From: Escherichia phage ECO340P2
Sequence record: OP172792
Reading direction: 5' to 3' (one strand)
DNA: 64,000 nucleotides
Shown here: piece after piece, positions 8,340-31,180 of the stretch
How the letters are laid out: each line of letters begins with the position of its first letter
Position numbering within the stretch: position 1 is the stretch's first letter
Position numbers and translations under genes: made by a program
Notes under the pieces: generated by a model
What the model saw: only the letters and a program-made list of their open reading frames with translations
Databases searched by the model: none
Told to the model about the DNA's origin: nothing

Positions 8340-8469
8340 TAAATACTAATATTTAAATTCTTTTTAAAATAGCCAGTGTTCACACCACTAACTATGAGTT
8401 ATCGGTAAAGTGGTTACCGCCACTTGCCGAAGATTTACTCTGCTAAAGTAAGCTATATTAAAAAGAACT

Positions 8470-8555
8470 TGGCGGTAGATGTAGGACTCGAACCTACACG
8501 CCGTTTCCGACTACAGTTTAGCAAACTGTCGTGGCTACCATTTCACCAATCTACC
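8470..8555 (-). tRNA. tRNA-Ser (anticodon GCT), type II
   Basis: acceptor GGTAGAT/ATCTACC, G73, anticodon arm ACAGT-TTGCTAA-ACTGT, long variable arm, T-loop TTCGAGT. Confidence 0.85.
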
Positions 8556-8560
8556 TAATC

Positions 8561-8651
8561 TGGCGGAAGGAGGGAGAGTCGAACTCCCAAGGCTCTTTCA
8601 AGCTCGGCGGTTTTCAAGACCGTTTTCGTCGCCACGTCGATTTGCCCTTCC
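8561..8651 (-). tRNA. tRNA-Ser (anticodon TGA), type II
   Basis: acceptor GGAAGGG/TCCTTCC, G73, anticodon loop CTTGAAA, long variable arm, T-arm GGGAG/TTCGACT/CTCCC. Confidence 0.8.
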
Positions 8652-8660
8652 ATACTTATA

Positions 8661-8689
8661 ATCTAACATAAAATAATGTTAGTTGTCAA
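8661..8689 (-). promoter_or_regulatory. sigma70-like promoter (TTGACA-17-TTAGAT) upstream of the right tRNA sub-cluster
   Basis: reverse complement CTATTGACAA motif about 30 nt upstream of tRNA-Ser 5' end. Confidence 0.3.
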
Positions 8690-8884
8690 TAGTTTTTTAA
8701 AACATTTTACCATGAATGGTGACTCCACCAACCCCGTTCTCCACGAACGGTGCTCTTCGAGCATTTATGTCTTCTAATATAACCGTGGCCTTTGTTTATA
8801 ATGTCTGACATACTTGCCTCATTCTCTGCCACCATGATCAGTAGTGGGTTCAAATCACTTGAGCTAATTCATGTTAAAATGTTC

Positions 8885-8959
8885 TGGTGTCTTTACAAGG
8901 AATCGAACCTTGACTAAGAGTTTAGAAGACTCCTGTGCTATCCATTACACCATAAAGAC
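8885..8959 (-). tRNA. tRNA-Arg (anticodon TCT)
   Basis: acceptor GTCTTTA/TAAAGAC, anticodon arm GGAGT-CTTCTAA-ACTCT, T-arm CAAGG/TTCGATT/CCTTG, CCA. Confidence 0.85.
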
Positions 8960-8961
8960 GT

Positions 8962-9036
8962 TGGTGGCCCTGGCTGGTTTCGATCCAGCTACCTATCGGT
9001 TATGAGCCGACAGCTCTCCCATTGAGCTACAGGGCC
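8962..9036 (-). tRNA. tRNA-Met (anticodon CAT; second copy, possibly a different CAT isoacceptor)
   Basis: acceptor GGCCCTG/CAGGGCC, anticodon loop CTCATAA, T-arm GCTGG/ATCGAAA/CCAGC, CCA. Confidence 0.8.
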
Positions 9037-17656: not shown

Positions 17657-18382
17657 ATGATCGAGAATTTTTTTAAAGATATTAAATTCGATACTGAATT
17701 TTTCAAAAATGCAGCAAAGCACGTGATTGATTGGAATGCCAAAGCACGAGGTGGTGAACAACCTGAATTCACTCAAGAGCTATTTATGTCTCAAATCGGG
17801 TTCGTTCGTGAAGAGCTTAAAGAGTATGAAACAGCCGCGAAAGTAAACGATCATGTAGAACTCTTGGATGCAGCAGCGGATATTTTTGTAGTATCCAGTT
17901 ATCTGACTTACATGTTCTTTGGTGAAGAACATACGATGAATTTCTTGGACTATGCTGTAGGCGATGTTTTTACTCCAACTGTGTATACCGATTTCGATGC
18001 TTTGGAACAAACATTTACAGAGCCAGTTCAAATGGCGCTAATGGCTGCGGGTATTATGCGTATGTCTCGTGACACTCTAATCCGTTCAAAATATCCAGAA
18101 AAGAAAGTTATTAAAGAGGTATTGAAAAGTAATGATTCCAAGTATCCAACTAAACAACAGTTGCTGAAAACTTGGAAAACTTCAGATATCGATTCAGCCA
18201 TTGCACAAGAATGCGCTGCAATTGAAGAACGAAATGCCAATCGTCCAGAAGGGGCATACACTGGTGTTCATGCCGTTTATAATGAAAAACAGAAAGTGTA
18301 TGTGTTCTTTGATGATAAAGGTAAGATCATGAAACCATCGACCTTTGTCAAACCTAATATTGCAGGTATTATTAACAAGTAA
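17657..18382 (+). CDS. hypothetical protein, possible MazG-like nucleotide pyrophosphohydrolase
   Basis: 241 aa; EELKEYETAAK...ELLDAAADIFVV resembles the MazG EExxE...D pattern; weak. Confidence 0.45.
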   Translation: MIENFFKDIKFDTEFFKNAAKHVIDWNAKARGGEQPEFTQELFMSQIGFVREELKEYETAAKVNDHVELLDAAADIFVVSSYLTYMFFGEEHTMNFLDYAVGDVFTPTVYTDFDALEQTFTEPVQMALMAAGIMRMSRDTLIRSKYPEKKVIKEVLKSNDSKYPTKQQLLKTWKTSDIDSAIAQECAAIEERNANRPEGAYTGVHAVYNEKQKVYVFFDDKGKIMKPSTFVKPNIAGIINK

Positions 18383-18438: not shown

Positions 18439-19317
18439 ATGTTTGTAAAATCTTTTAAATCCGCTCTGCCTATGGTTGTTGGTGACGATGCTTCTGTAGC
18501 ATCCCTTAACAGCATTACAGATATTCCTCTGGAATTTGTAACAGCAGAAGGCTCCCAGTCACACACTATCGGTCTTGTTCGTTTCGAAGATGACTCCAAA
18601 TTTGTAAAAGAGTTTTCAGATCTTGAACTGCTTAATGTAGGTCAATCTGTGAAGAAGGTAGATAAAAAGAAAGTTAAACGTATTCTGAATGAACGTCTAG
18701 AAGAAATGCGTCAGGATATGGAGAGCGAGGGTAAAGAGTTTTATGTCGATAAAGAAGTAGTCAAAGCAATGAAGGAAGATATTGAATTTGCACTATTGCC
18801 TGAAACAGAACCTGAAGATTTCTTTAACTATGTTGTCTTGGATAAAACTACGAATCTTCTTTATGTTCTTAATGGAAGTAAAAAGGTCGCAGAAGAGATT
18901 ACTTCTTTCCTCCGTTCCGTTCTGGGGACTTTCCCTTCGGTAGGTTTTAGTGTGCACGAAGAAGCTATTGTAAAAGGTTTTGGTGAATTGCTGGAGAATC
19001 ACGAAGCAGATCGTATTACTCTCGGAAATTATATCAAAATGGAGGATAGCGAGGGCGTTGTTGTTTGGAGTAAAGAATCCCTATACGAGTCTAAAGCTGT
19101 CGAACTAAAAGAAGATGGTAAAGATGTGGTTGCAATCGGTCTTGAATATGACGGTGTTGTAGATTTTGTAGTGGATAAAGAGTTTAAACTTTCTAAACTA
19201 CGTTTTCCGAAATATTTTGCAGACGAAGAAGGCAGTATTGAAGCTTCAGTCCTTCTGTGCTTCAATGAGATTCGAGGTCTGATGGAAGATTTAACCAAAG
19301 CAACAATCCTTAAATAA
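18439..19317 (+). CDS. hypothetical protein
   Basis: 292 aa ORF, strong RBS AGGAGG. Confidence 0.55.
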   Translation: MFVKSFKSALPMVVGDDASVASLNSITDIPLEFVTAEGSQSHTIGLVRFEDDSKFVKEFSDLELLNVGQSVKKVDKKKVKRILNERLEEMRQDMESEGKEFYVDKEVVKAMKEDIEFALLPETEPEDFFNYVVLDKTTNLLYVLNGSKKVAEEITSFLRSVLGTFPSVGFSVHEEAIVKGFGELLENHEADRITLGNYIKMEDSEGVVVWSKESLYESKAVELKEDGKDVVAIGLEYDGVVDFVVDKEFKLSKLRFPKYFADEEGSIEASVLLCFNEIRGLMEDLTKATILK

Positions 19318-19321
19318 GTTC

Positions 19322-19350
19322 TTGACTTGCGGGATTAGTTATGATATTAT
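19322..19350 (+). promoter_or_regulatory. sigma70-like promoter (TTGACT-17-TATTAT)
   Basis: good consensus match; followed by hairpin CCTACCT..AGGTAGG + TTTTTA. Confidence 0.45.
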
Positions 19351-19389
19351 GCCTACCTACTTAATGAGGTAGGCTTTTTAGGAGGCGTT

Positions 19390-19599
19390 ATGAAAAAGAT
19401 TCTGACAGTCGTTCTTTTAGCTTTTAGTTTCACAGTAGCAGCAGGTCAAATTACTTTAATCTTGTCTGATTCTGAAGTTAATGGCAACACAAAATATTGC
19501 TACTATTCTAACGCTAACCAAGATGAAGTTATAGCAATCCCGAAAAGTCGTCAATGTCCGTATACTAAAACATTCTCAACAGAGGATGACGATGAATAA
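19390..19599 (+). CDS. small secreted protein (signal peptide)
   Basis: 69 aa; N-terminal MKKILTVVLLAFSFTVAAG; RBS GGAGG. Confidence 0.55.
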   Translation: MKKILTVVLLAFSFTVAAGQITLILSDSEVNGNTKYCYYSNANQDEVIAIPKSRQCPYTKTFSTEDDDE

Positions 19600-20040
19600 T
19601 TAGGGGGAAATATTAGCGGTTATATTTTAATTAAACCTGAAGATCTTCATTTATATGTCAACGAAGAAACAATAGCTGCAATTGATTATGATCAAATCGC
19701 TTTCCAAGCAGCGTCTGCATTAGAGAAAAGAACAATCATTGCGAAGCACATCCCTTCAGGTGCTCAAAAGGAATTTAAAAATAAGACAGAGTTTTGGGGT
19801 AAAAGCAAGACTAAAATTGGAGGTTGGCTAGGAGATACAAATGCAGAAAGAGCCTCCAAAAACAAACGTCCCTTCACAAAGGAAGAGTTCGAAATCATTG
19901 ATAAGCAATACCCGCCAGAAGATATCGGACACACCTTCCAAGCAGCTAAAACAAAAGTCTTAGGTATTCTAAAACATCTACGTTTAGAAAAATATTGCGG
20001 AGTTATTGGCGTAGGAAAAACTTTCAGACACGCCTTCAAA

Positions 20041-20730
20041 ATGCCTGTAGAATATAAGTCTGAACGATTAGATATCAAACCACTTCAGCTTTCAGAAACC
20101 AAAGATTATCTTGTGGAGTTCCACAATGGTGATGTTGTTACTGTAATAGAGGCTGATGATGAGTTAGAGAAGTATGGTTTCCAAGGTTATAAAGATTATA
20201 AAAGGACGGGTAAATTTTCTTATATCGTAGTGTCTATAGATAAAGATAGTTTACATACTCCTAGTATCCTTTTTAATTTCTACAAAGAGGATGGAGTATT
20301 TAAAAATCCAGATATAATTCTTATTGACGAGTCTATTGGCGATATATGGATCGTAGATAAAGGTAAAAAGAAAGAAGTTAAAGGTTGGGGCAGTTACTGG
20401 TTAGCATATCAGATGCTAATGGGAGATAAAACAGATAGTATCCGACCTTATCAAGATTTTGATATTAAGTTCGGAGATATTACTTGTTTTAATCTTCTTT
20501 CAGCTTGTAAAACTCAAGCAGAACTTTTCCAAACAGTTAAAGATACTTACTACTCATGGTTCCCAGATGGTGTTAATTTTACTTCTTGGGATGGAGAAGA
20601 AGTCCATATGACAACAGATGAATGGATAGAAACAATTTTCCAGTTGGTATACATGAAACGCTGGGATAATGACGATACAACATTTGAGAGTATGCTTCAG
20701 TCATACATCTCGCAACAGGAGGCAGAGTGA
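20041..20730 (+). CDS. hypothetical protein (frame stays open upstream to 19600; true start may be non-canonical)
   Basis: 229 aa from first ATG; 147 in-frame upstream codons have no stop and no ATG/GTG/TTG. Confidence 0.5.
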   Translation: MPVEYKSERLDIKPLQLSETKDYLVEFHNGDVVTVIEADDELEKYGFQGYKDYKRTGKFSYIVVSIDKDSLHTPSILFNFYKEDGVFKNPDIILIDESIGDIWIVDKGKKKEVKGWGSYWLAYQMLMGDKTDSIRPYQDFDIKFGDITCFNLLSACKTQAELFQTVKDTYYSWFPDGVNFTSWDGEEVHMTTDEWIETIFQLVYMKRWDNDDTTFESMLQSYISQQEAE

Positions 20731-22561: not shown

Positions 22562-23137
22562 TTGGCAGGTGAACCAAAAATAATGTGGGGTGAAGGAACA
22601 CCCTGGAAAACACAAGCTGAATTTTATACTTATCTTAGGGGATGTTTTAGAAAAGCATGGATGAGACACCCTAATAAAATTAAGGTTATCAATGCAAGGC
22701 GTTTTAAAGTTGATCGAGTAGATAAAGACGGCAATGTGATGATAGACAAGAAAACTGGAAAACCAAAACAAGTTTGGAATTGTGAGTGCGAAATATGTGG
22801 ACATAGAGGAGGAATGAAAGACTTCCAAGTGGATCATATTCACGCAGCAAAACAACTTCAATGTTTTGATGATATTCCTCTTTTTGTTTTCCGTTTAATC
22901 TATGTGAAAGAAGAAGATTTGCGAATGGTTTGTAAATTGTGCAACTCTATTCTTGCTTATGCAGACAAGCAAGGCATATCTTTTGAAGAAGCAAAAGCTG
23001 AAAAAGAAGCAATAGCTTTGTGTAGAGCTAAGAAAGATAAAGCTTGGTTGAAGAAGCGTAAAATAGAACCTGAAAGCACAGTAGCAAAACGCCGTAAACA
23101 AATAGTCAAAATCTTATTGCAGAAAATTGAAAGTTAG
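22562..23137 (+). CDS. HNH endonuclease-like protein
   Basis: CECEICGH ... VDHIHA ... CKLCNS arrangement typical of HNH nucleases; Lys-rich C-terminus. Confidence 0.55.
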   Translation: MAGEPKIMWGEGTPWKTQAEFYTYLRGCFRKAWMRHPNKIKVINARRFKVDRVDKDGNVMIDKKTGKPKQVWNCECEICGHRGGMKDFQVDHIHAAKQLQCFDDIPLFVFRLIYVKEEDLRMVCKLCNSILAYADKQGISFEEAKAEKEAIALCRAKKDKAWLKKRKIEPESTVAKRRKQIVKILLQKIES

Positions 23138-23173
23138 TATAAGATAACTATACTAAAAGAGAGAGGAGGTTTT

Positions 23174-23782
23174 ATGCAGATAGTATGTGATTGGGATTTA
23201 GTTGTGGCTCCATTAGATGTGGCTTGGTTAGAATGGTTGAATAAGATTAGTGGCCTTGGTGTTAAAATCGACACATTCACAAAAAATGCAGATTATGATC
23301 TTACCAACTATTTTCCTGGTTTCAGAGAAGAGTTCAATATAGATCCTTACGGATTTCTGGATAATCCTCATCTCTATGATACAATGGGTTTTGTTCCAGG
23401 TATGCCAGATTTCTTAAAGTATGTTTCAAGGAAAGGTAGCAACCTTTTGATCGCAAGTGTGACAAAAGGTGGTCACTTAAGTTCTAAACATAAGCATGTT
23501 TTAAGAACATTAGATACGATTGATTTTAGCAAAGGATCTGGCAACGGCTTTTTTGCTACGAAAGAAAAATACTTATTGCCTTGTGATATAGCAATAGATG
23601 ACAGGGCTGATAACCTACTATATTTTCCAGATGAAGTGGTTAAAATATATTTTAATACGCCTTATAAAGATAACCATCTAGAAGAACTAAAGAAAAAACC
23701 AAATGTTGTGATCACAGGTTTAGAAGATCAGTGGCTAACATGTTTGGATGTTTTTAACACTTTGAACAATTTTAAAAACTAA
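23174..23782 (+). CDS. 5'(3')-deoxyribonucleotidase (NT5C-like HAD phosphatase)
   Basis: N-terminal VCDWDLV (DxD nucleophile motif) and C-terminal IDDR resemble NT5C family. Confidence 0.55.
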   Translation: MQIVCDWDLVVAPLDVAWLEWLNKISGLGVKIDTFTKNADYDLTNYFPGFREEFNIDPYGFLDNPHLYDTMGFVPGMPDFLKYVSRKGSNLLIASVTKGGHLSSKHKHVLRTLDTIDFSKGSGNGFFATKEKYLLPCDIAIDDRADNLLYFPDEVVKIYFNTPYKDNHLEELKKKPNVVITGLEDQWLTCLDVFNTLNNFKN

Positions 23783-23791
23783 GGAGAAAAA

Positions 23792-24790
23792 ATGACAAAA
23801 CAGATTTCGGCTAGTATTATTGCGCATTCCATCACTGAAGACGGAAAAGAGATTGTAACTTTTGAACTAGAATATCCACGTATTATTCATTCAGAATTGA
23901 TGACTCACCGCCTGTTCAGTCGTAATGCTGCTTCTAGCCGTGCTATACCTGTTAAAACACTGATTGAAATGGTGCGAAATCAACCTGCTCGTCCTTATCG
24001 TTTTGGGGCTAACCAACCTGGTATGCAGGATAAAGGTGTTGATCACGATGCTCTTATTGATGCAGGTTATACTGCTCAAGAGTGGTGGGATCTTGCCGCG
24101 CTTAGTGCAGCACGTTTTGCAGAAGAATTCTCTTTGGCAGGGTACCACAAACAAGTTGCAAACCGTCTTCTGGAACCTTTCCAACGAATTAAAACAGTTC
24201 TGACAGCAACAGAATATGAAAATTTCTGGTGGCTACGTGATGACAAAGAAGCCGATCCTACTATCGAAGCTTTGGCTAAAGAGATGCACAAAGAGTATGA
24301 AGGATCTACACCAGAAGTGCTGAAACCAGGGCAATGGCACACACCTTATGTAGACCATTTCTATGATACTATTGGCACAGAAGGTGACGATCATTTTGTT
24401 TTTGGTGGATACTATGTTCAAGATGAATCTGGAGAAGTTGTTGTGCTTACTTTGGAAGAAGCCAAAGCTATTTCAGCTTCGTGTTGTGCACAGGTTAGTT
24501 ATCGTCGTTTAAATGCAACTAAAGATAAAGCTTTAGATATCTATGGTCGCTTGCTGACTGGGCGCAAGGTTCATGCTTCTCCGTTTGAACATCAAGCCAC
24601 TCCAATGCAAGAAACATACGAACAATATGGAGAGAACTGTTTTGAAGATTTGTTTATCAATGCTCCTTGGGATTTTAACTCTTGGGAACCAGGTATTACC
24701 CATGTAGATCGTAATGGTAAGTTTTGGTCTGGCAATTTCAAAGGTTGGATTCAACATCGTCAACTTTTAACAAATCACACTAAATGGTGA
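23792..24790 (+). CDS. ThyX-like protein (flavin-dependent thymidylate synthase family, atypical)
   Basis: THRLFSRNAASSR closely matches the ThyX signature RHR-x7-S-xR but with Thr for first Arg; PFEH element near C-terminus; 332 aa is long for ThyX. Confidence 0.45.
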   Translation: MTKQISASIIAHSITEDGKEIVTFELEYPRIIHSELMTHRLFSRNAASSRAIPVKTLIEMVRNQPARPYRFGANQPGMQDKGVDHDALIDAGYTAQEWWDLAALSAARFAEEFSLAGYHKQVANRLLEPFQRIKTVLTATEYENFWWLRDDKEADPTIEALAKEMHKEYEGSTPEVLKPGQWHTPYVDHFYDTIGTEGDDHFVFGGYYVQDESGEVVVLTLEEAKAISASCCAQVSYRRLNATKDKALDIYGRLLTGRKVHASPFEHQATPMQETYEQYGENCFEDLFINAPWDFNSWEPGITHVDRNGKFWSGNFKGWIQHRQLLTNHTKW

Positions 24791-24806: not shown

Positions 24807-24834
24807 TTGACTTTAGTATTAGTTTTAGTATAAT
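24807..24834 (+). promoter_or_regulatory. sigma70-like promoter (TTGACT-16-TATAAT)
   Basis: near-consensus boxes upstream of the 24889 gene; followed by GGGAGGA..TCCTCCC hairpin. Confidence 0.5.
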
Positions 24835-24888
24835 ATAGCACAATACTGGGAGGAGGTGAGTCCTCCCATTCAAAATGAAGGAGAAAAT

Positions 24889-25299
24889 ATGTCATTAGTA
24901 AATACTACAACTTGGGCTACCGTAAGCATGTCTACTGTAATGTCTACCCCTATCTGGAAACTAGAATCAAATAAACACAATGGTAATATCCCACACGAGA
25001 AACAAAATGCTGTTATTAGAGCGTCGCTTGTAATGCTGGGTATGGCTGAAGATTCACACTATTCTGTTGAGCGTAATGTGAATATCCGAAGCAATAACGA
25101 TAAGCGAGTAGTGTTTGCAAATACAACGCTTTTCACTTTCCCTGTTTCACCTAATTGTGGTTTTAAACGAATCTACCAAGAAAATGATATTTTTCATTTT
25201 GGTGATGAAGAATTTACAGGTTGGGGTGCGTCACATATTAAGATGGATGATTTCGGTAACTCTTATGATCCTGCGAAAGCAGATGATACTAATCAATGA
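24889..25299 (+). CDS. hypothetical protein
   Basis: ATG after AAGGAGA; 136 aa. Confidence 0.5.
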   Translation: MSLVNTTTWATVSMSTVMSTPIWKLESNKHNGNIPHEKQNAVIRASLVMLGMAEDSHYSVERNVNIRSNNDKRVVFANTTLFTFPVSPNCGFKRIYQENDIFHFGDEEFTGWGASHIKMDDFGNSYDPAKADDTNQ

Positions 25300-25550
25300 G
25301 AGGGACAATGACTGATAATAAATATGAAGGCTGTGAAATCGAAGTCTATTTTGATGAAACTGTTGGTTGTAATGTAACTGTAATTCTAGACACTTCAAAA
25401 CGTTTATCTCCTAAAAGACAAGAAGCAGACCGTCGAGCAAAAGCAAAAGGGTTTGATGACATAACTCATTTTGAAGGTTTTCTATATGCTAATGGACTTT
25501 TTAATGAAATGAAGTTCGGTTATGATGTAGATGTTTTGAATATGCATTAA
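25296..25550 (+). CDS. hypothetical protein
   Basis: 84 aa ORF overlapping previous stop. Confidence 0.5.
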   Translation: MRGTMTDNKYEGCEIEVYFDETVGCNVTVILDTSKRLSPKRQEADRRAKAKGFDDITHFEGFLYANGLFNEMKFGYDVDVLNMH

Positions 25551-25566: not shown

Positions 25567-27807
25567 TTGATTCGTTTTGTAACTAAATCTAACGGTAAGA
25601 CAGAGGAGTTTAATCCAGAAAAACTTCGCAAGTGGTCTGAATTTGCAGCAGGTAAACTAAACTGGTCTGAAATTGAATTAGAAGCTGTGAAGCGGTGTTA
25701 TGACGGTGTGTCTACACGTGATCTGCATAAAGCAATGATTGCAGCGTGTATTGACAAGAAAACACAAGCTTACAGTGATATGGCAGGAAGACTTCTTCTG
25801 GGTATGATTTACAAACAGGCTCATGGGGGATACCACAGTATCCCTTCACTGAATACCTTTTATCATGATATGGTAGAACGTGGACATTGGGCTAAAATGG
25901 ATTATACTGATGAAGAGATCAAAGAAATCGGTAAGATTGTAAAGCATAATAAAAATCTAACTTATGGTTATTCTGTTTTACGTCAGATGGTAGATAAATA
26001 TCTTATTCGAGATGCAGTAAACGATGTTGTGCATGAGTCTCCACAGTTTCTTTTCATTGGTATCGCAATGAAGGTTATGGAGATCCAACCAAAAGAACGC
26101 CGTATAGAAGATATTAAAAAACTTTATACTTATGTTAGCGATCTTAAGATTAATCTGCCATCGCCGTATCTGACAACTCTACGAACTCCAATCAAAGGAA
26201 GTGCGTCTTGTTGTTTATTCCGTGCAGACGATACGGCAGAGTCTTTAGCCATTGCTAACTACTTAGCTCATGAGTATACGTTGAATAACGCAGGTATTGG
26301 TGTTAATCTTCAAACCCGTGCCACAGGTCAAGGTGTTAAGAATAATCGTATTATTCATGGTGGTCTTCTTCCGTATCTGAAATGGATGGAAGATAGTGTT
26401 GGAGCTTCGAAGCAAGCAAGCCGTGGAGGTAGTGCTACAGTTACCTTTACCATACTTGAACCAGATTTCGACGATCTGATTCGACTGAAGAATCCAACAA
26501 CACCTATAGATAAACGAGTAGACAAACTGGATTATTCTATTGTTGTTAACCGTTCATTCTTGCGTCGAGCAGCAAAAAACGAAGATTGGATGTTAGTTAG
26601 TTGTGATGATGCTCCTGAACTTTATGAAGCTTTGTATAAAAGTGAAGAAGAGTTTGATGCAGTTTATGACAAAGTAAGCCGTCGTCGCATTAAGAAAAAA
26701 TTTGTTAAGGCTCGTGATCTTCTGACAGAGATTATTGTTCAACGTGCAGAAACAGGACGTATTTACATGTTCTTTGCTGACAACGTTAACAACCATACAC
26801 CTTTCCTGGATACGGTGTATCAATCAAACCTGTGTCAAGAGATTTTCTTACCGACTAAAGCTTTCCACAATATGCCGGATCTCTTTACTGGTGAGAATAC
26901 TGAAGATCAAGAATTGGCTTTATGTTTCTTATCTTCTATTGTTGCTGGTCGTGTATTACCTGAAGAATATGAAGATGTTGCATACTACACTGTATTGACA
27001 ATTGACAACGTTATTGAAACAATGGATTATCCATTTAAACATAACGAAATAACTGCTAAAGCACGTAGATCTATTGGTGTAGGCATTACAAACTTAGCGC
27101 ATTACTTGGCAAGTAATTTTGTAAATTATTCAGATGCTTATGCTAAAAAATTAATGCATGAACTTGCAGAACGTCATTACTTTTGGTTGGCAAAAGCCTC
27201 TCTGCGTCTGGCTAAGGAAAAAGGTAATGCGGAGTGGATCGATAAGACCAAATGGCCTCAAGGTTGGCTACCAATTGACACTTATGTTAAAACAGTAGAT
27301 AGTATCGGTAATTTTGATCTTAAAATGGACTGGGAAGGCTTACGTGCTGAAATCATTGAACAAGGTGGTATCCGTAACAGTGTCTTGGCTGCTATTGCAC
27401 CTAATGAGTCCAGCAGTTTGGTAAGCAATACTACTAACTCTCTGTATCCTGTTCGTGATACCATTATGTATAAACAAAGTCAGAAAGGCAGTGTATTATT
27501 TATTGTTCCAGACTATGAAAAACTGAAAATGTTCTACCAATCTGCCTGGGATACTCCGGCTAAAGATCTTGCAGAAATGTATGGTATCTTTACCAAGTTT
27601 ACGGACCAAGGAATTTCTTGTGATTCTTGGTTAGATTATTCTAAATTGGTAGGGGGACGTTTATCAGTTAAAGAAGAGATGAAATTTATTTTGAACTTTG
27701 CTAGACTGGGTGGTAAGTCATTGTATTACCTTAATAGTAGAACAAAATCAGCAGATTCTTTAGCACAAGAAGATTCTGATGGTGGTTGTGAAGCTTGCAA
27801 GATGTGA
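25567..27807 (+). CDS. nrdA: ribonucleotide reductase large subunit (class Ia NrdA), TTG start
   Basis: 746 aa; N-terminal ATP-cone-like region, active-site NLCQEI, C-terminal tail ending CEACKM; RBS GGGAGGAG. Confidence 0.85.
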   Translation: MIRFVTKSNGKTEEFNPEKLRKWSEFAAGKLNWSEIELEAVKRCYDGVSTRDLHKAMIAACIDKKTQAYSDMAGRLLLGMIYKQAHGGYHSIPSLNTFYHDMVERGHWAKMDYTDEEIKEIGKIVKHNKNLTYGYSVLRQMVDKYLIRDAVNDVVHESPQFLFIGIAMKVMEIQPKERRIEDIKKLYTYVSDLKINLPSPYLTTLRTPIKGSASCCLFRADDTAESLAIANYLAHEYTLNNAGIGVNLQTRATGQGVKNNRIIHGGLLPYLKWMEDSVGASKQASRGGSATVTFTILEPDFDDLIRLKNPTTPIDKRVDKLDYSIVVNRSFLRRAAKNEDWMLVSCDDAPELYEALYKSEEEFDAVYDKVSRRRIKKKFVKARDLLTEIIVQRAETGRIYMFFADNVNNHTPFLDTVYQSNLCQEIFLPTKAFHNMPDLFTGENTEDQELALCFLSSIVAGRVLPEEYEDVAYYTVLTIDNVIETMDYPFKHNEITAKARRSIGVGITNLAHYLASNFVNYSDAYAKKLMHELAERHYFWLAKASLRLAKEKGNAEWIDKTKWPQGWLPIDTYVKTVDSIGNFDLKMDWEGLRAEIIEQGGIRNSVLAAIAPNESSSLVSNTTNSLYPVRDTIMYKQSQKGSVLFIVPDYEKLKMFYQSAWDTPAKDLAEMYGIFTKFTDQGISCDSWLDYSKLVGGRLSVKEEMKFILNFARLGGKSLYYLNSRTKSADSLAQEDSDGGCEACKM

Positions 27808-27851: not shown

Positions 27852-28937
27852 ATGGCAGCAATTAATTTACACAATGAAGTTTACAAAACAGGAAAATATC
27901 CAGTATTTTTGGGGGAGCAATTAGGGATCTTTGATTCTGTTAACGTAACTTATCCAGAAATGCACAAACTCTACAAACTTCAAAAAGCACAAGATTGGGA
28001 TGAAAACGAAGTTAATCTGGATCAGACACGTAAAGATTTCGTAGCTTGTTCTAAAAACAACTATGATGTTATGATTAAAAACTTATCGTTCCAATGGGAA
28101 AATGATTCTCTTGCAAAATCAATCATCACTTTGTTCTCTCCATTCTTGAGTAACAATGAAGCCTGTGCTATGATGATGAAGCAGAGTGAAATGGAAGTTC
28201 TCCATGCGTTAACGTATTCTGAAATAATCCGTCAATGTACTCCAGATCCAATTGAAGTCATCAATCAGATTATGATTAATGATAAAATTTTCAATCGTAT
28301 GGGTATCATTGCTGATATCATGGGTCAGTTGGAAGAAGCTGGTCATAAGTATGCTCTAGGATTGATTGAAGCTAACGATGAACTTCGCTTGCTGATTCTT
28401 AAAGGGATGGTAGCCCTGATTGGATTAGAAGGTATTCAGTTTATATCTTCCTTCTCTGCTACTTTTGCTATGGCAGAACAACAACTGTTTGTTGGGGCTT
28501 GTAAACTGATCCAGAAAATTATGCTAGATGAAATCTTGCATGTTAAGATGGACTATGCTGTAATTGATGCATTGATGCATGACCCAATTTGGCGTAAAAT
28601 TTACGAAGATAATATTGAAGAGTTGACTTTGATCCTCGACACTGTTGTTGAACAAGAGGAACAGTGGTGTGACTACCTGTTTAGTGAAGGTCGTTTTATT
28701 GTAGGTCTTAACGCCGAATTGTCTAAACAGTGGGTTTATTTCAATGCTGCTCCTATTTATCGTCGATTGAAAATGAAAGCCAAGTTTAAAGCACCTAAAC
28801 ATAGTCCTTTAGCTTGGATGGAAAAATGGTTGAATCCTGATTTGATTCAGTCAGCAGCCCAAGAGATTCAGTTAACTAATTACAAATTGAATTCAGCTAA
28901 CAAAGATCTCTCTGATGATGAGGAGCTTGACTTCTAA
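27852..28937 (+). CDS. nrdB: ribonucleotide reductase small subunit (class Ia NrdB)
   Basis: 361 aa; ferritin-like helices with conserved E/H positions; acidic C-terminal tail DDEELDF; next to nrdA. Confidence 0.85.
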   Translation: MAAINLHNEVYKTGKYPVFLGEQLGIFDSVNVTYPEMHKLYKLQKAQDWDENEVNLDQTRKDFVACSKNNYDVMIKNLSFQWENDSLAKSIITLFSPFLSNNEACAMMMKQSEMEVLHALTYSEIIRQCTPDPIEVINQIMINDKIFNRMGIIADIMGQLEEAGHKYALGLIEANDELRLLILKGMVALIGLEGIQFISSFSATFAMAEQQLFVGACKLIQKIMLDEILHVKMDYAVIDALMHDPIWRKIYEDNIEELTLILDTVVEQEEQWCDYLFSEGRFIVGLNAELSKQWVYFNAAPIYRRLKMKAKFKAPKHSPLAWMEKWLNPDLIQSAAQEIQLTNYKLNSANKDLSDDEELDF

Positions 28938-29777: not shown

Positions 29778-30344
29778 ATGAAAGTAGAAAAAACAAAAAT
29801 TGAAGGTGCGGTAATTATCAAACCAGACGTTTATAAAGATGATCGTGGTTTCTTTTTAGAAACATACAATGAACAAAAATACGAAGATATCATTGGTAAA
29901 CAAACTTTCGTTCAAGATAATATGTCTAAATCAAACTTCGGTGTTTTGCGAGGAATGCACTTTCAAACAAATAACCCGCAAGGTAAGCTTGTTCGTTGTG
30001 TAAGTGGAGAAGTATTGGATTTCGCTGTAGATTTACGTAAAGATAGTCCAACTTACGGTGCTTGGGACGGTGTTGTTCTTCGTGCACGACACCATACGCA
30101 GTTTTGGCTTCCCCCTGGTTTGGCACATGGTTTTATAGTTTTGAGTATGGACGCTATCTTTGAATACAAATGCACAACTCCATACGACCCTTCTAGCGAA
30201 CAAAGTTTACGTTGGGATGATCCTGACATAGGGATCGATTGGGGCTTCGATATGATTTTTGACGAAGGTTTTAAACCTATCTTATCAACAAAAGATGCAA
30301 TGGCTAAATCTTTTCAACAGTTGCGTAGTGAGGGTGTATGCTAA
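29778..30344 (+). CDS. rmlC: dTDP-4-dehydrorhamnose 3,5-epimerase (RmlC-like cupin)
   Basis: 188 aa; FxETY...GVLRGMHFQ block and size match RmlC/RfbC. Confidence 0.75.
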   Translation: MKVEKTKIEGAVIIKPDVYKDDRGFFLETYNEQKYEDIIGKQTFVQDNMSKSNFGVLRGMHFQTNNPQGKLVRCVSGEVLDFAVDLRKDSPTYGAWDGVVLRARHHTQFWLPPGLAHGFIVLSMDAIFEYKCTTPYDPSSEQSLRWDDPDIGIDWGFDMIFDEGFKPILSTKDAMAKSFQQLRSEGVC

Positions 30345-31180
30345 CATATCTGGTATTGGGTGGTAATGGACAACTGGGACAAGCTTTACGTAAAGTGGTT
30401 CCTTCAAATGTATCTTTAATTTATCCTAAAGAACGTGTAGATATTACAAATTTTGAAGCTGTGCGAAACGCTATTGTTGAAGATTATGTAGACGGTGTTA
30501 TTAACTGCGCTGCTTATACGGCTGTAGATAAAGCAGAACATGATTTTGCTACTGCTTTGGCTGTTAATGCGTATGGACCTGCAAATATTGCGGCAGTGTG
30601 CAGCAAACTTAAAATTGATTTTGTGCATATTTCTACAGACTATATTTTTAATTATTCTCACCCTATTTTTGAAGATACTACACCTAACCCAATAAACAAT
30701 TATGGGTATACGAAAGAACTTGGTGAAAAAATGGTGCGAGGAGTTAACCCAAATGCATATATTATTCGAACAGCCTCGGTATATAGCGAATTTGGAAATA
30801 ACTTTCTAAAAACGATGTTGTCTCGCTATAACGATGGACAACGTGATTTTATTATTGTTGCTGATCAGTTCTCTTGTCCAACATATGCTCCAGATTTAGC
30901 AGAAGCTATTTTTGAAGTATTAAAAACAGGTTGGTCAAGGTCTGTTAAGACTTACCATTTTGCAGGAAGCCATTTTATTTCTTGGGCGGAGTTTGCGGAA
31001 AAGATCTTGACACAGATGCCAGAACCTGTTAAGATATCGGCGGTATCAGCTTCAACCTATAATGCTCCAGCAGCACGTCCGGTGAAGTCACAACTAGTAA
31101 CCAGTCACTACCTTACAAAATCAGATTTAAATAAAGGTATTGAACAGTCTTTAGCAGTATTACTTAATAAGGAGAGGTAA
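30338..31180 (+). CDS. rmlD: dTDP-4-dehydrorhamnose reductase (RmlD-like short-chain reductase)
   Basis: 280 aa; N-terminal Rossmann LVLGGNGQLGQAL; YxxxK-type context; adjacent to rmlC. Confidence 0.7.
   Translation: MLTYLVLGGNGQLGQALRKVVPSNVSLIYPKERVDITNFEAVRNAIVEDYVDGVINCAAYTAVDKAEHDFATALAVNAYGPANIAAVCSKLKIDFVHISTDYIFNYSHPIFEDTTPNPINNYGYTKELGEKMVRGVNPNAYIIRTASVYSEFGNNFLKTMLSRYNDGQRDFIIVADQFSCPTYAPDLAEAIFEVLKTGWSRSVKTYHFAGSHFISWAEFAEKILTQMPEPVKISAVSASTYNAPAARPVKSQLVTSHYLTKSDLNKGIEQSLAVLLNKER

Follow-up and report, generated by a model that had tools for sequence, protein, structure and literature searches.

A ThyX-family protein of permuted sequence next to a putative deoxyribonucleotidase gene in Escherichia phage ECO340P2

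We examine here two adjacent genes at positions 23174-24790 of a 64,000-nucleotide stretch of DNA from Escherichia phage ECO340P2 (sequence record OP172792), the whole of which is called the window below. The window belongs to a Phapecoctavirus genome (Stephanstirmvirinae), that is, to a phAPEC8-like coliphage, and the locus matches Escherichia phage ECO340P1 at 100%, many phAPEC8-like phages at 98-99% identity, and the complete genome of phAPEC8_ev052 at 98.6%. It consists of two open reading frames (ORFs) on the same strand, found where the initial annotation had placed them: one at 23174-23782 (+), encoding an NT5C-like HAD-superfamily phosphatase of 202 amino acids (aa) that is a putative 5'(3')-deoxyribonucleotidase, and one at 23792-24790 (+), encoding a permuted ThyX-family protein of 332 aa that is a probable flavin-dependent thymidylate synthase. 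The two are separated by 9 bases, and each is preceded by a strong Shine-Dalgarno sequence (GAGGAGG and AAGGAG, respectively). We will argue that the 332-aa product is most likely a functional ThyX-type enzyme that makes thymidine monophosphate (dTMP), and that it represents a large subfamily with a permuted sequence.

The initial annotation, made from the letters of the DNA, had described a ThyX signature with Thr in place of the first Arg, a PFEH element close to the C-terminus, and about 100 residues more than is typical for ThyX, and all three features are indeed present. The signature THRLFSRNAASSR occupies residues 38-50, the codon of Thr38 being ACT at 23903-23905. It reads T38-H-R-x-x-S43-x-N45-x-x-S48-S-R50 (23903..23941, +) and corresponds, in an alignment of hidden Markov models (HMMs), to R78-H79-R80...S83...N85...S88...R90 of Thermotoga maritima ThyX. 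Compared to the signature RHRxxSxxxxSxR, the spacing and five of the six positions are kept, and the first Arg is Thr. The PFEH element is found at residues 264-267, within HASPFEH at 261-267, and the protein, at 332 aa, is 60-115 residues longer than the ThyX chains with solved structures, which have 216-270 aa. The suggested relationship to ThyX was to be checked by profile comparison, and the comparison agrees with it: the protein passes the gathering threshold of Pfam Thy1 (33.3 vs 24.8 bits), with a match that covers profile positions 59-190 of 191 only, and pieces of the family HMM align to T. maritima ThyX. A search of PDB sequences with the single protein, or with a profile of its close relatives, gives no match; ThyX structures are matched only by profiles that are diverse or de-permuted.

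The position of the PFEH element is explained by the order of the sequence. In T. maritima ThyX, for which the sequence used is identical to PDB 1KQ4, the stretch AARVS30F...H53ETPFEH59 stands before the strand that enters R78-H79-R80, while in the 332-aa protein the similar stretch SCCAQVS236YRR...VH261ASPFEH267 stands after the core. A family HMM built from 58 diverse members aligns to T. maritima ThyX in three segments that are out of order, with 218-261 on 20-61, 27-56 on 61-90, and 135-177 on 157-199. When the columns of this HMM are reordered, T. maritima residues 20-90 are aligned without interruption, and the total score is 42.0 bits instead of 28.7. The same behavior is seen with a de-permuted construct of the protein itself, in which residues 214-267 were moved ahead of 20-178. 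The Pfam Thy1 score then increases from 30.6 to 51.4 bits, in one stretch over profile positions 14-190 of 191, and the score with NCBIfam TIGR02170 increases from 26.5 to 49.6 bits, whereas a control with the moved segment reversed remains at 30.8 and 26.4 bits, respectively. Against the PDB, the profile scores 29 bits with T. maritima ThyX in the native order and 38 bits in the de-permuted one, and the alignments begin at chain residues 25-33 with the de-permuted profile vs 49-68 with the native one.

These comparisons indicate that a homologous module has indeed been relocated, from before the core to after it, and that this accounts for the displaced PFEH. The relocated module comprises residues 221-267 (24452..24592, +), with two helices and HASPFEH, and is homologous to T. 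maritima ThyX 20-59. As to how the rearrangement came about, the Pfam Thy1 score of the de-permuted construct stays the same (51.2 bits) when the N-terminal strand is included, so that the construct does not discriminate between the two routes, and either circular permutation or translocation of the module may have been involved. The protein has the three-dimensional fold of ThyX without the collinear order of helices and HxTPFEH, strand and RHR, and core helices. This order is common to the canonical enzymes (T. maritima TM0449, Mycobacterium tuberculosis, Helicobacter pylori and PBCV-1 A674R; PF02511, EC 2.1.1.148), which are all collinear.

We now consider the active site, using residue equivalences from HMM alignments to T. 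maritima ThyX and column counts over 390 family members. The positions that bind deoxyuridine monophosphate (dUMP) in the T. maritima enzyme, Ser88, Arg90, Arg147 and Arg174, are retained as Ser48 (384/390), Arg50 (385/390), Arg125 and Arg149. His53 and Asn85 are likewise conserved, as His261 and Asn45. Among the residues in contact with the flavin, equivalents are present for Ser30 (Ser236), Thr55 (as Ser263), Glu58 (Glu266), His79 (His39, conserved in 376 of the 390 members), Arg80 (Arg40, which is Arg or Lys in the family) and Asn169 (Asn144); apart from those equivalent to Ser71, Arg95 and Arg190 of M. tuberculosis ThyX, these are the contacts of the T. maritima structure. The core helices (24149..24238, +), placed from the HMM alignment with T. 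maritima ThyX together with the column counts, carry Lys120, Arg125, Thr138, Thr140, Asn144 and Arg149, of which Thr138 is the equivalent of Asn163. It can also be pointed out that Arg30 sits 8 residues ahead of the motif, and that a dUMP-binding Arg shows the same 8-residue spacing in the M. tuberculosis (Arg87/Arg95) and H. pylori (Arg66/Arg74) enzymes (PMC6514825).

Four positions of canonical ThyX are, on the other hand, replaced. Two Arg residues that contact the flavin have become Thr, namely Arg78 (Thr38, Thr in 378/390) and Arg165 (Thr140, 387/390), the lid residue Tyr91 is Ala51 (385/390), and His178 is an acidic residue in the majority of members (Asp in 226/390, Glu in 8). Thr38 is also invariant across 23 close relatives, and being shared by all of these and by nearly the whole family, it is due neither to chance nor to an error in sequencing. 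In addition, the protein has gained a number of elements relative to canonical ThyX. These are a GMQ loop; a W-H-x-P-Y motif (24335..24349, +) that is specific to the family in its alignment, with His183 and Pro185 invariant, and for which no counterpart could be identified in the alignment to canonical ThyX; a beta-hairpin insertion at residues 188-219 (24353..24448, +), located from the AlphaFold2 (AF2) secondary structure and variable between lineages; and a C-terminal extension (24593..24787, +) with no canonical counterpart, variable over residues ~272-310 and followed by a conserved Arg-bearing tail, SGNFxGWxQxRQ, at 313-324. The invariant residues specific to the family are Gly77-Met78, Lys120, His183, Pro185 and Arg323, the last of these in 254 of 254 members wherever the tail aligns. 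Judging from their conservation, Gly77-Met78, Lys120, His183 and Arg323 may rebuild the altered part of the pocket. Arg238 was also considered as a substitute for the missing motif Arg, and was dropped because this position is Leu in the cyanobacterial set.

The family to which the protein belongs is large. An exhaustive HMMER search returned 4,994 representative clusters at E <= 1e-3, of which 1,618 at E <= 1e-30, and by tblastn the protein is present in the genomes of 1,034 isolated phages, including rV5-like, phAPEC8-like, ICP1, PaP1/PAK_P1-like, N4-like Gamaleyavirus, phiCbK-like, Mx1, BcepSaruman and Cellulophaga phages, in which it is usually annotated as 'thymidylate synthase' or 'hypothetical protein'. 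Even the farthest phage members, at 33-39% identity, retain Thr-His-Arg, the C-terminal HASPxEH and the tail. The hairpin at 188-219 is missing in minimal members, such as the Mystique and BcepSaruman proteins and cellular proteins of 270-290 aa.

The family is not specific to phages. Bacterial copies were searched for with a degenerate DNA pattern for E..THR..S.N..SSRA[IV]P, which requires the Thr and hence cannot measure how frequent Arg is in cellular copies. At least 120 bacterial genome contigs match this pattern, several of them being Mb-sized contigs or complete chromosomes. The carriers among the matches listed are Solirubrobacterales, Eremiobacterota/Vulcanimicrobiota, Saccharibacteria, Pseudanabaena, Leptolyngbya, Verrucomicrobiota and Acidobacteria; among these same matches, 120/120 bacterial ORFs fit the family HMM (median 271 bits), and every ORF that is not cut short has HxSPxEH some 200 residues past THR. 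The cellular copies are shorter, about 250-330 aa, as they have neither the hairpin insertion nor the variable part of the C-terminus, and most of them have the G[WF]xQxR tail. In Pseudanabaena biceps, the copy, which carries the NCBI name 'FAD-dependent thymidylate synthase', is surrounded by ordinary genes of the chromosome, ftsEX and smc among them. Examples of complete genomes with the gene are that of P. biceps, CP011211.1 (Saccharibacteria) and NZ_CP088295.1 (Svornostia abyssi). In their cellular hosts the permuted enzymes would presumably be the sole thymidylate synthase.

Another feature of the representatives is that inteins occur at five conserved sites, namely after each of His33, Arg40, Ser48 and His261 and just before the AQPEI motif. 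Motifs that are essential to an active site are the characteristic location of inteins, and the presence of inteins in both the THR and the relocated HxSPFEH motif argues that both motifs are functional. The intein sites in the subfamily number at least five, and several of the inteins contain HNH or LAGLIDADG-like endonuclease parts.

As far as annotation goes, the gene is already known, as it is called a thymidylate synthase in many records. As a branch of ThyX in its own right, however, the family is apparently undescribed: in the searchable literature, within which earlier work on ThyX motifs was incompletely covered, we found no description of the permuted architecture or of the fixed Arg to Thr, Arg to Thr and Tyr to Ala changes.

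We turn next to the metabolic context. No ThyA, dihydrofolate reductase (DHFR), deoxycytidine monophosphate (dCMP) deaminase or dUTPase is annotated in the complete genome of phAPEC8_ev052, and when E. coli ThyA, FolA and Dut and T. maritima ThyX were used as tblastn queries, the window and this genome gave chance hits only (best E 0.035). Since no other thymidylate synthase was found in either, the ThyX-like gene is the sole candidate for this function. ThyX releases tetrahydrofolate and not dihydrofolate, and genomes with ThyX usually lack both ThyA and DHFR; a ThyX without a DHFR is for this reason the expected pairing. The genes for the alpha and beta subunits of a class Ia ribonucleotide reductase (RNR) begin 0.8 kb downstream of the ThyX-like gene (25567-27807, +, Pfam PF02867, 326.6 bits; and 27852-28937, +, Pfam PF00268, 114.8 bits), an arrangement shared with rV5 and Acinetobacter phage Mystique. 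Two small conserved ORFs, of 147 aa (PHROG_15711) and 84 aa (PHROG_15807), separate the ThyX-like gene from that of RNR alpha (24856-25550). One relative has the former labelled as a 'minor head protein', a name that seems doubtful inside a block of replication genes. The same early-gene block contains a nucleotide pyrophosphohydrolase that resembles MazG/PRA-PH (17657-18382; Pfam PF01503, 28 bits) and is another potential modifier of the nucleotide pool.

Upstream, the 202-aa protein is marginal in its assignment to the NT5C family, with 26.1 bits against a cut-off of 24.8 in Pfam PF06941. It belongs to PHROG_420, for which the listed function is unknown, and neither sequence nor profile searches give a PDB match. 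HAD motifs I-IV are nevertheless invariant in 20 homologues (Asp6-x-Asp8, Ser95/Thr97, Lys130/Lys132 and Asp142-Asp143), and the DxD nucleophile, the Ser/Thr, the Lys and the DD are shared with NT5C proteins such as human cdN and mdN, from which the 202-aa protein is otherwise very divergent. Of the NT5C-like nucleotidase proposed in the initial annotation, the HAD phosphatase thus stands, while the attribution to NT5C is weak. On the basis of these motifs, the protein is probably an active phosphatase, and a role in balancing deoxynucleotide pools is plausible. Homologues are found in 415 phage records, mostly of Vequintavirinae/Stephanstirmvirinae relatives (rV5 and phAPEC8), where they usually adjoin a gene for a deoxynucleoside monophosphate (dNMP) kinase or a thymidine kinase just upstream of the ThyX-like gene.

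The two genes are probably transcribed together. No terminator-like site was found within 23174-24790, and a sigma-70-like promoter match, TTGAAA-16-TATACT, lies upstream of the two-gene unit at 23127..23154 (+). This match is weak evidence, as the window contains 29 such matches vs 24.2 +/- 4.4 expected from shuffles, which is no excess. The next strong match, at 24807-24834, is located 3' of the ThyX-like gene. Directly upstream of the pair is a gene for an HNH endonuclease (22562..23137, +; PHROG_1985, E = 1e-65), probably a mobile element. A homing endonuclease gene is also found directly upstream of the ThyX-like gene in Burkholderia phage BcepSaruman (2908-3981 of the compared locus), and mobile endonucleases seem to target this locus repeatedly.

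It is useful to compare the protein with other enzymes related to C5 transfer on pyrimidines. PolB, the C5-methylase of UMP and dUMP in polyoxin biosynthesis (PDB 4P5A), is collinear with ThyX, and the 332-aa protein is permuted relative to it. PolB is barely detected by the family profile in its native order (E = 1.5) and reaches E = 0.006 after de-permutation. The contexts also differ, PolB being part of an antibiotic biosynthesis cluster and the 332-aa gene lying amid phage replication and RNR genes; the protein is accordingly not of the PolB type, which is collinear and found in nucleoside-antibiotic clusters. The phage enzymes of the ThyA family (T4 Td and the dCMP and dUMP hydroxymethylases that serve in making hypermodified bases) have the same metabolic position during phage replication, with a one-carbon transfer to C5 of a pyrimidine dNMP, but their fold is unrelated to that of the 332-aa protein. 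The known pathways of thymidine hypermodification begin with an enzyme of the ThyA family, not with ThyX (PMC8989533).

Taken as a functional ThyX-type enzyme, the 332-aa protein would convert dUMP to dTMP with methylenetetrahydrofolate and NADPH via a bound flavin. The canonical ThyX is a homotetramer with bound flavin adenine dinucleotide (FAD), in which the synthesis of dTMP depends on NADPH and methylenetetrahydrofolate, and it is from the homology to this enzyme that we infer the catalysis, the cofactor and the oligomeric state. The fold, the homology itself, the permuted order, the conserved residues, the distribution and the genomic context are established by the comparisons above. In the permuted chain, the module of two helices and HxSPFEH, canonically placed between the first strand and the strand into RHR, would be encoded after the catalytic core, and the short Arg-bearing tail would be an addition. 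The dUMP contacts, the equivalent of His53 and most of the flavin contacts would be retained. Placed with the class Ia RNR in a replication-phase block, the gene would provide dTMP for phage DNA, and a phage DHFR would not be needed because ThyX yields tetrahydrofolate. There are, however, a number of observations that weigh against this assignment. In the enzymes of M. tuberculosis and H. pylori, the first Arg of RHR, here Thr, is hydrogen-bonded to the isoalloxazine ring and in contact with dUMP; Arg190 of the M. tuberculosis enzyme (T. maritima Arg165), also Thr here, holds the FAD phosphates from the adjoining subunit; and the Tyr lid (T. maritima Tyr91, M. tuberculosis Tyr108), here Ala, covers the reacting atoms (PMC6514825, which also describes the roles of M. 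tuberculosis Ser71, Arg95 and Arg190 in flavin contact). The protein also misses the equivalog cut-off of TIGR02170 (31.1 vs 87.9 bits), which even the de-permuted construct, at 49.6 bits, does not reach, and no assayed or solved member of the subfamily was found in the PDB or in the searchable literature. The loss of the motif Arg and of the Tyr lid, and the score under the equivalog cut-off, could also be read as signs of a protein that has lost catalysis and serves in regulation or as a structural component, for instance by binding nucleotides only. We consider this to be highly improbable, as all other catalytic-site equivalents are near-invariant in ~390 diverse members, inteins are inserted within the conserved motifs in the manner typical of essential active sites, and the gene is kept in the small genomes of Saccharibacteria.

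A further option is a neofunctionalised ThyX paralogue that makes some other C5-modified pyrimidine nucleotide, such as 5-hydroxymethyl-dUMP, a methylated dCMP, or a ribonucleotide as in the case of PolB; the adjacent nucleotidase would then clear the competing normal nucleotide. This corresponds to the 'pyrimidine-modifying relative' that the initial annotation had offered next to a 'divergent thymidylate synthase', and we find it very unlikely. The same substitutions are fixed in chromosomal copies of cyanobacteria, Saccharibacteria, Eremiobacterota and Solirubrobacterales, which presumably must make ordinary dTMP. This active-site variant being chromosomal in bacteria of several phyla, and the phage genome having no other detected thymidylate synthase, a base-modifying paralogue is disfavoured, and the divergent thymidylate synthase is the option that gains support, as the sole candidate in the genome of a near-identical relative. 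The family is moreover found in the well-studied phages ICP1, PaP1, rV5 and N4-like phages, and we know of no report of thymine modification in these. Vequintavirinae and their relatives carry orthologues that are 53-72% identical, and these same phages are exceptionally sensitive to restriction-modification systems (PMC8594841), which also speaks against a modified base. Compatible with a dTMP-making ThyX, and not exclusive of it, is a deliberate substrate cycle, in which the HAD phosphatase would act on dUMP/dTMP or on host-derived dNMPs and in this way tune the pyrimidine pool, as in the reshaping of the dNMP pool that the initial annotation had suggested. The close spacing of the two genes with no terminator-like site between them, the invariant HAD motifs, and the kinase gene that accompanies the homologue in relatives are in favor of such a cycle. 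The marginal NT5C score and the lack of PDB support argue against it, and the nucleotidase is found in far fewer phage records than the ThyX-like gene (415 vs 1,034), which shows that the enzyme does not depend on it. On balance, we regard the cycle as possible but rather doubtful.

Two other features of the window can be mentioned. From the dTDP-rhamnose pathway, only rmlC (29778-30344) and rmlD (30338-31180) are present, while phAPEC8_ev052 holds rmlB-rmlA-rmlC-rmlD. A clean 1.87-kb segment with rmlB and rmlA (18601-20472 of the compared locus) is absent from the window, where rmlC begins at the place expected for rmlB, and the two remaining genes might be of use, perhaps in combination with the rmlAB of the host. 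In addition, ten tRNA genes (Met x2, Ile, Pro, Gln, Gly, Thr, Asn, Ser and Arg) are clustered at 7114-9036 on the minus strand, corresponding to the annotated tRNA block of phAPEC8_ev052.

To return to the permuted ThyX, the family could constitute an undescribed structural class, widely distributed among virulent phages and across several phyla of bacteria, whose pocket for flavin and dUMP is rebuilt. The features in question are the relocated module, the two flavin-contacting Arg residues changed to Thr, the Tyr lid changed to Ala, and the new invariant Gly-Met, His183 and C-terminal Arg. We put this forward as a serious possibility that falls somewhat short of being probable; it is less likely that the phage enzymes have some product different from dTMP. 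If such a class is real, it should differ from the ThyX enzymes characterized to date in the way it binds its cofactor, in its kinetics or in its response to inhibitors. ThyX serves both as a target for antibacterial drugs and as a model of methylene transfer by a flavin, and the solved or assayed examples that we found are all collinear enzymes of the RHR type. Here, a branch with thousands of sequence clusters lacks three pocket residues supposed to be conserved, i.e. the first Arg of the motif, the Arg from the second subunit, and the Tyr lid. A structure or an assay of one member would reveal which features of the ThyX pocket are truly essential, and the same data would tell whether ThyX inhibitors act on Saccharibacteria, cyanobacteria and these phages. 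For annotation, the consequence is that the equivalog model misses the entire branch and that Pfam covers only the second half of the protein. For ECO340P2 itself, the ThyX-like gene is otherwise an ordinary part of its nucleotide-supply module.

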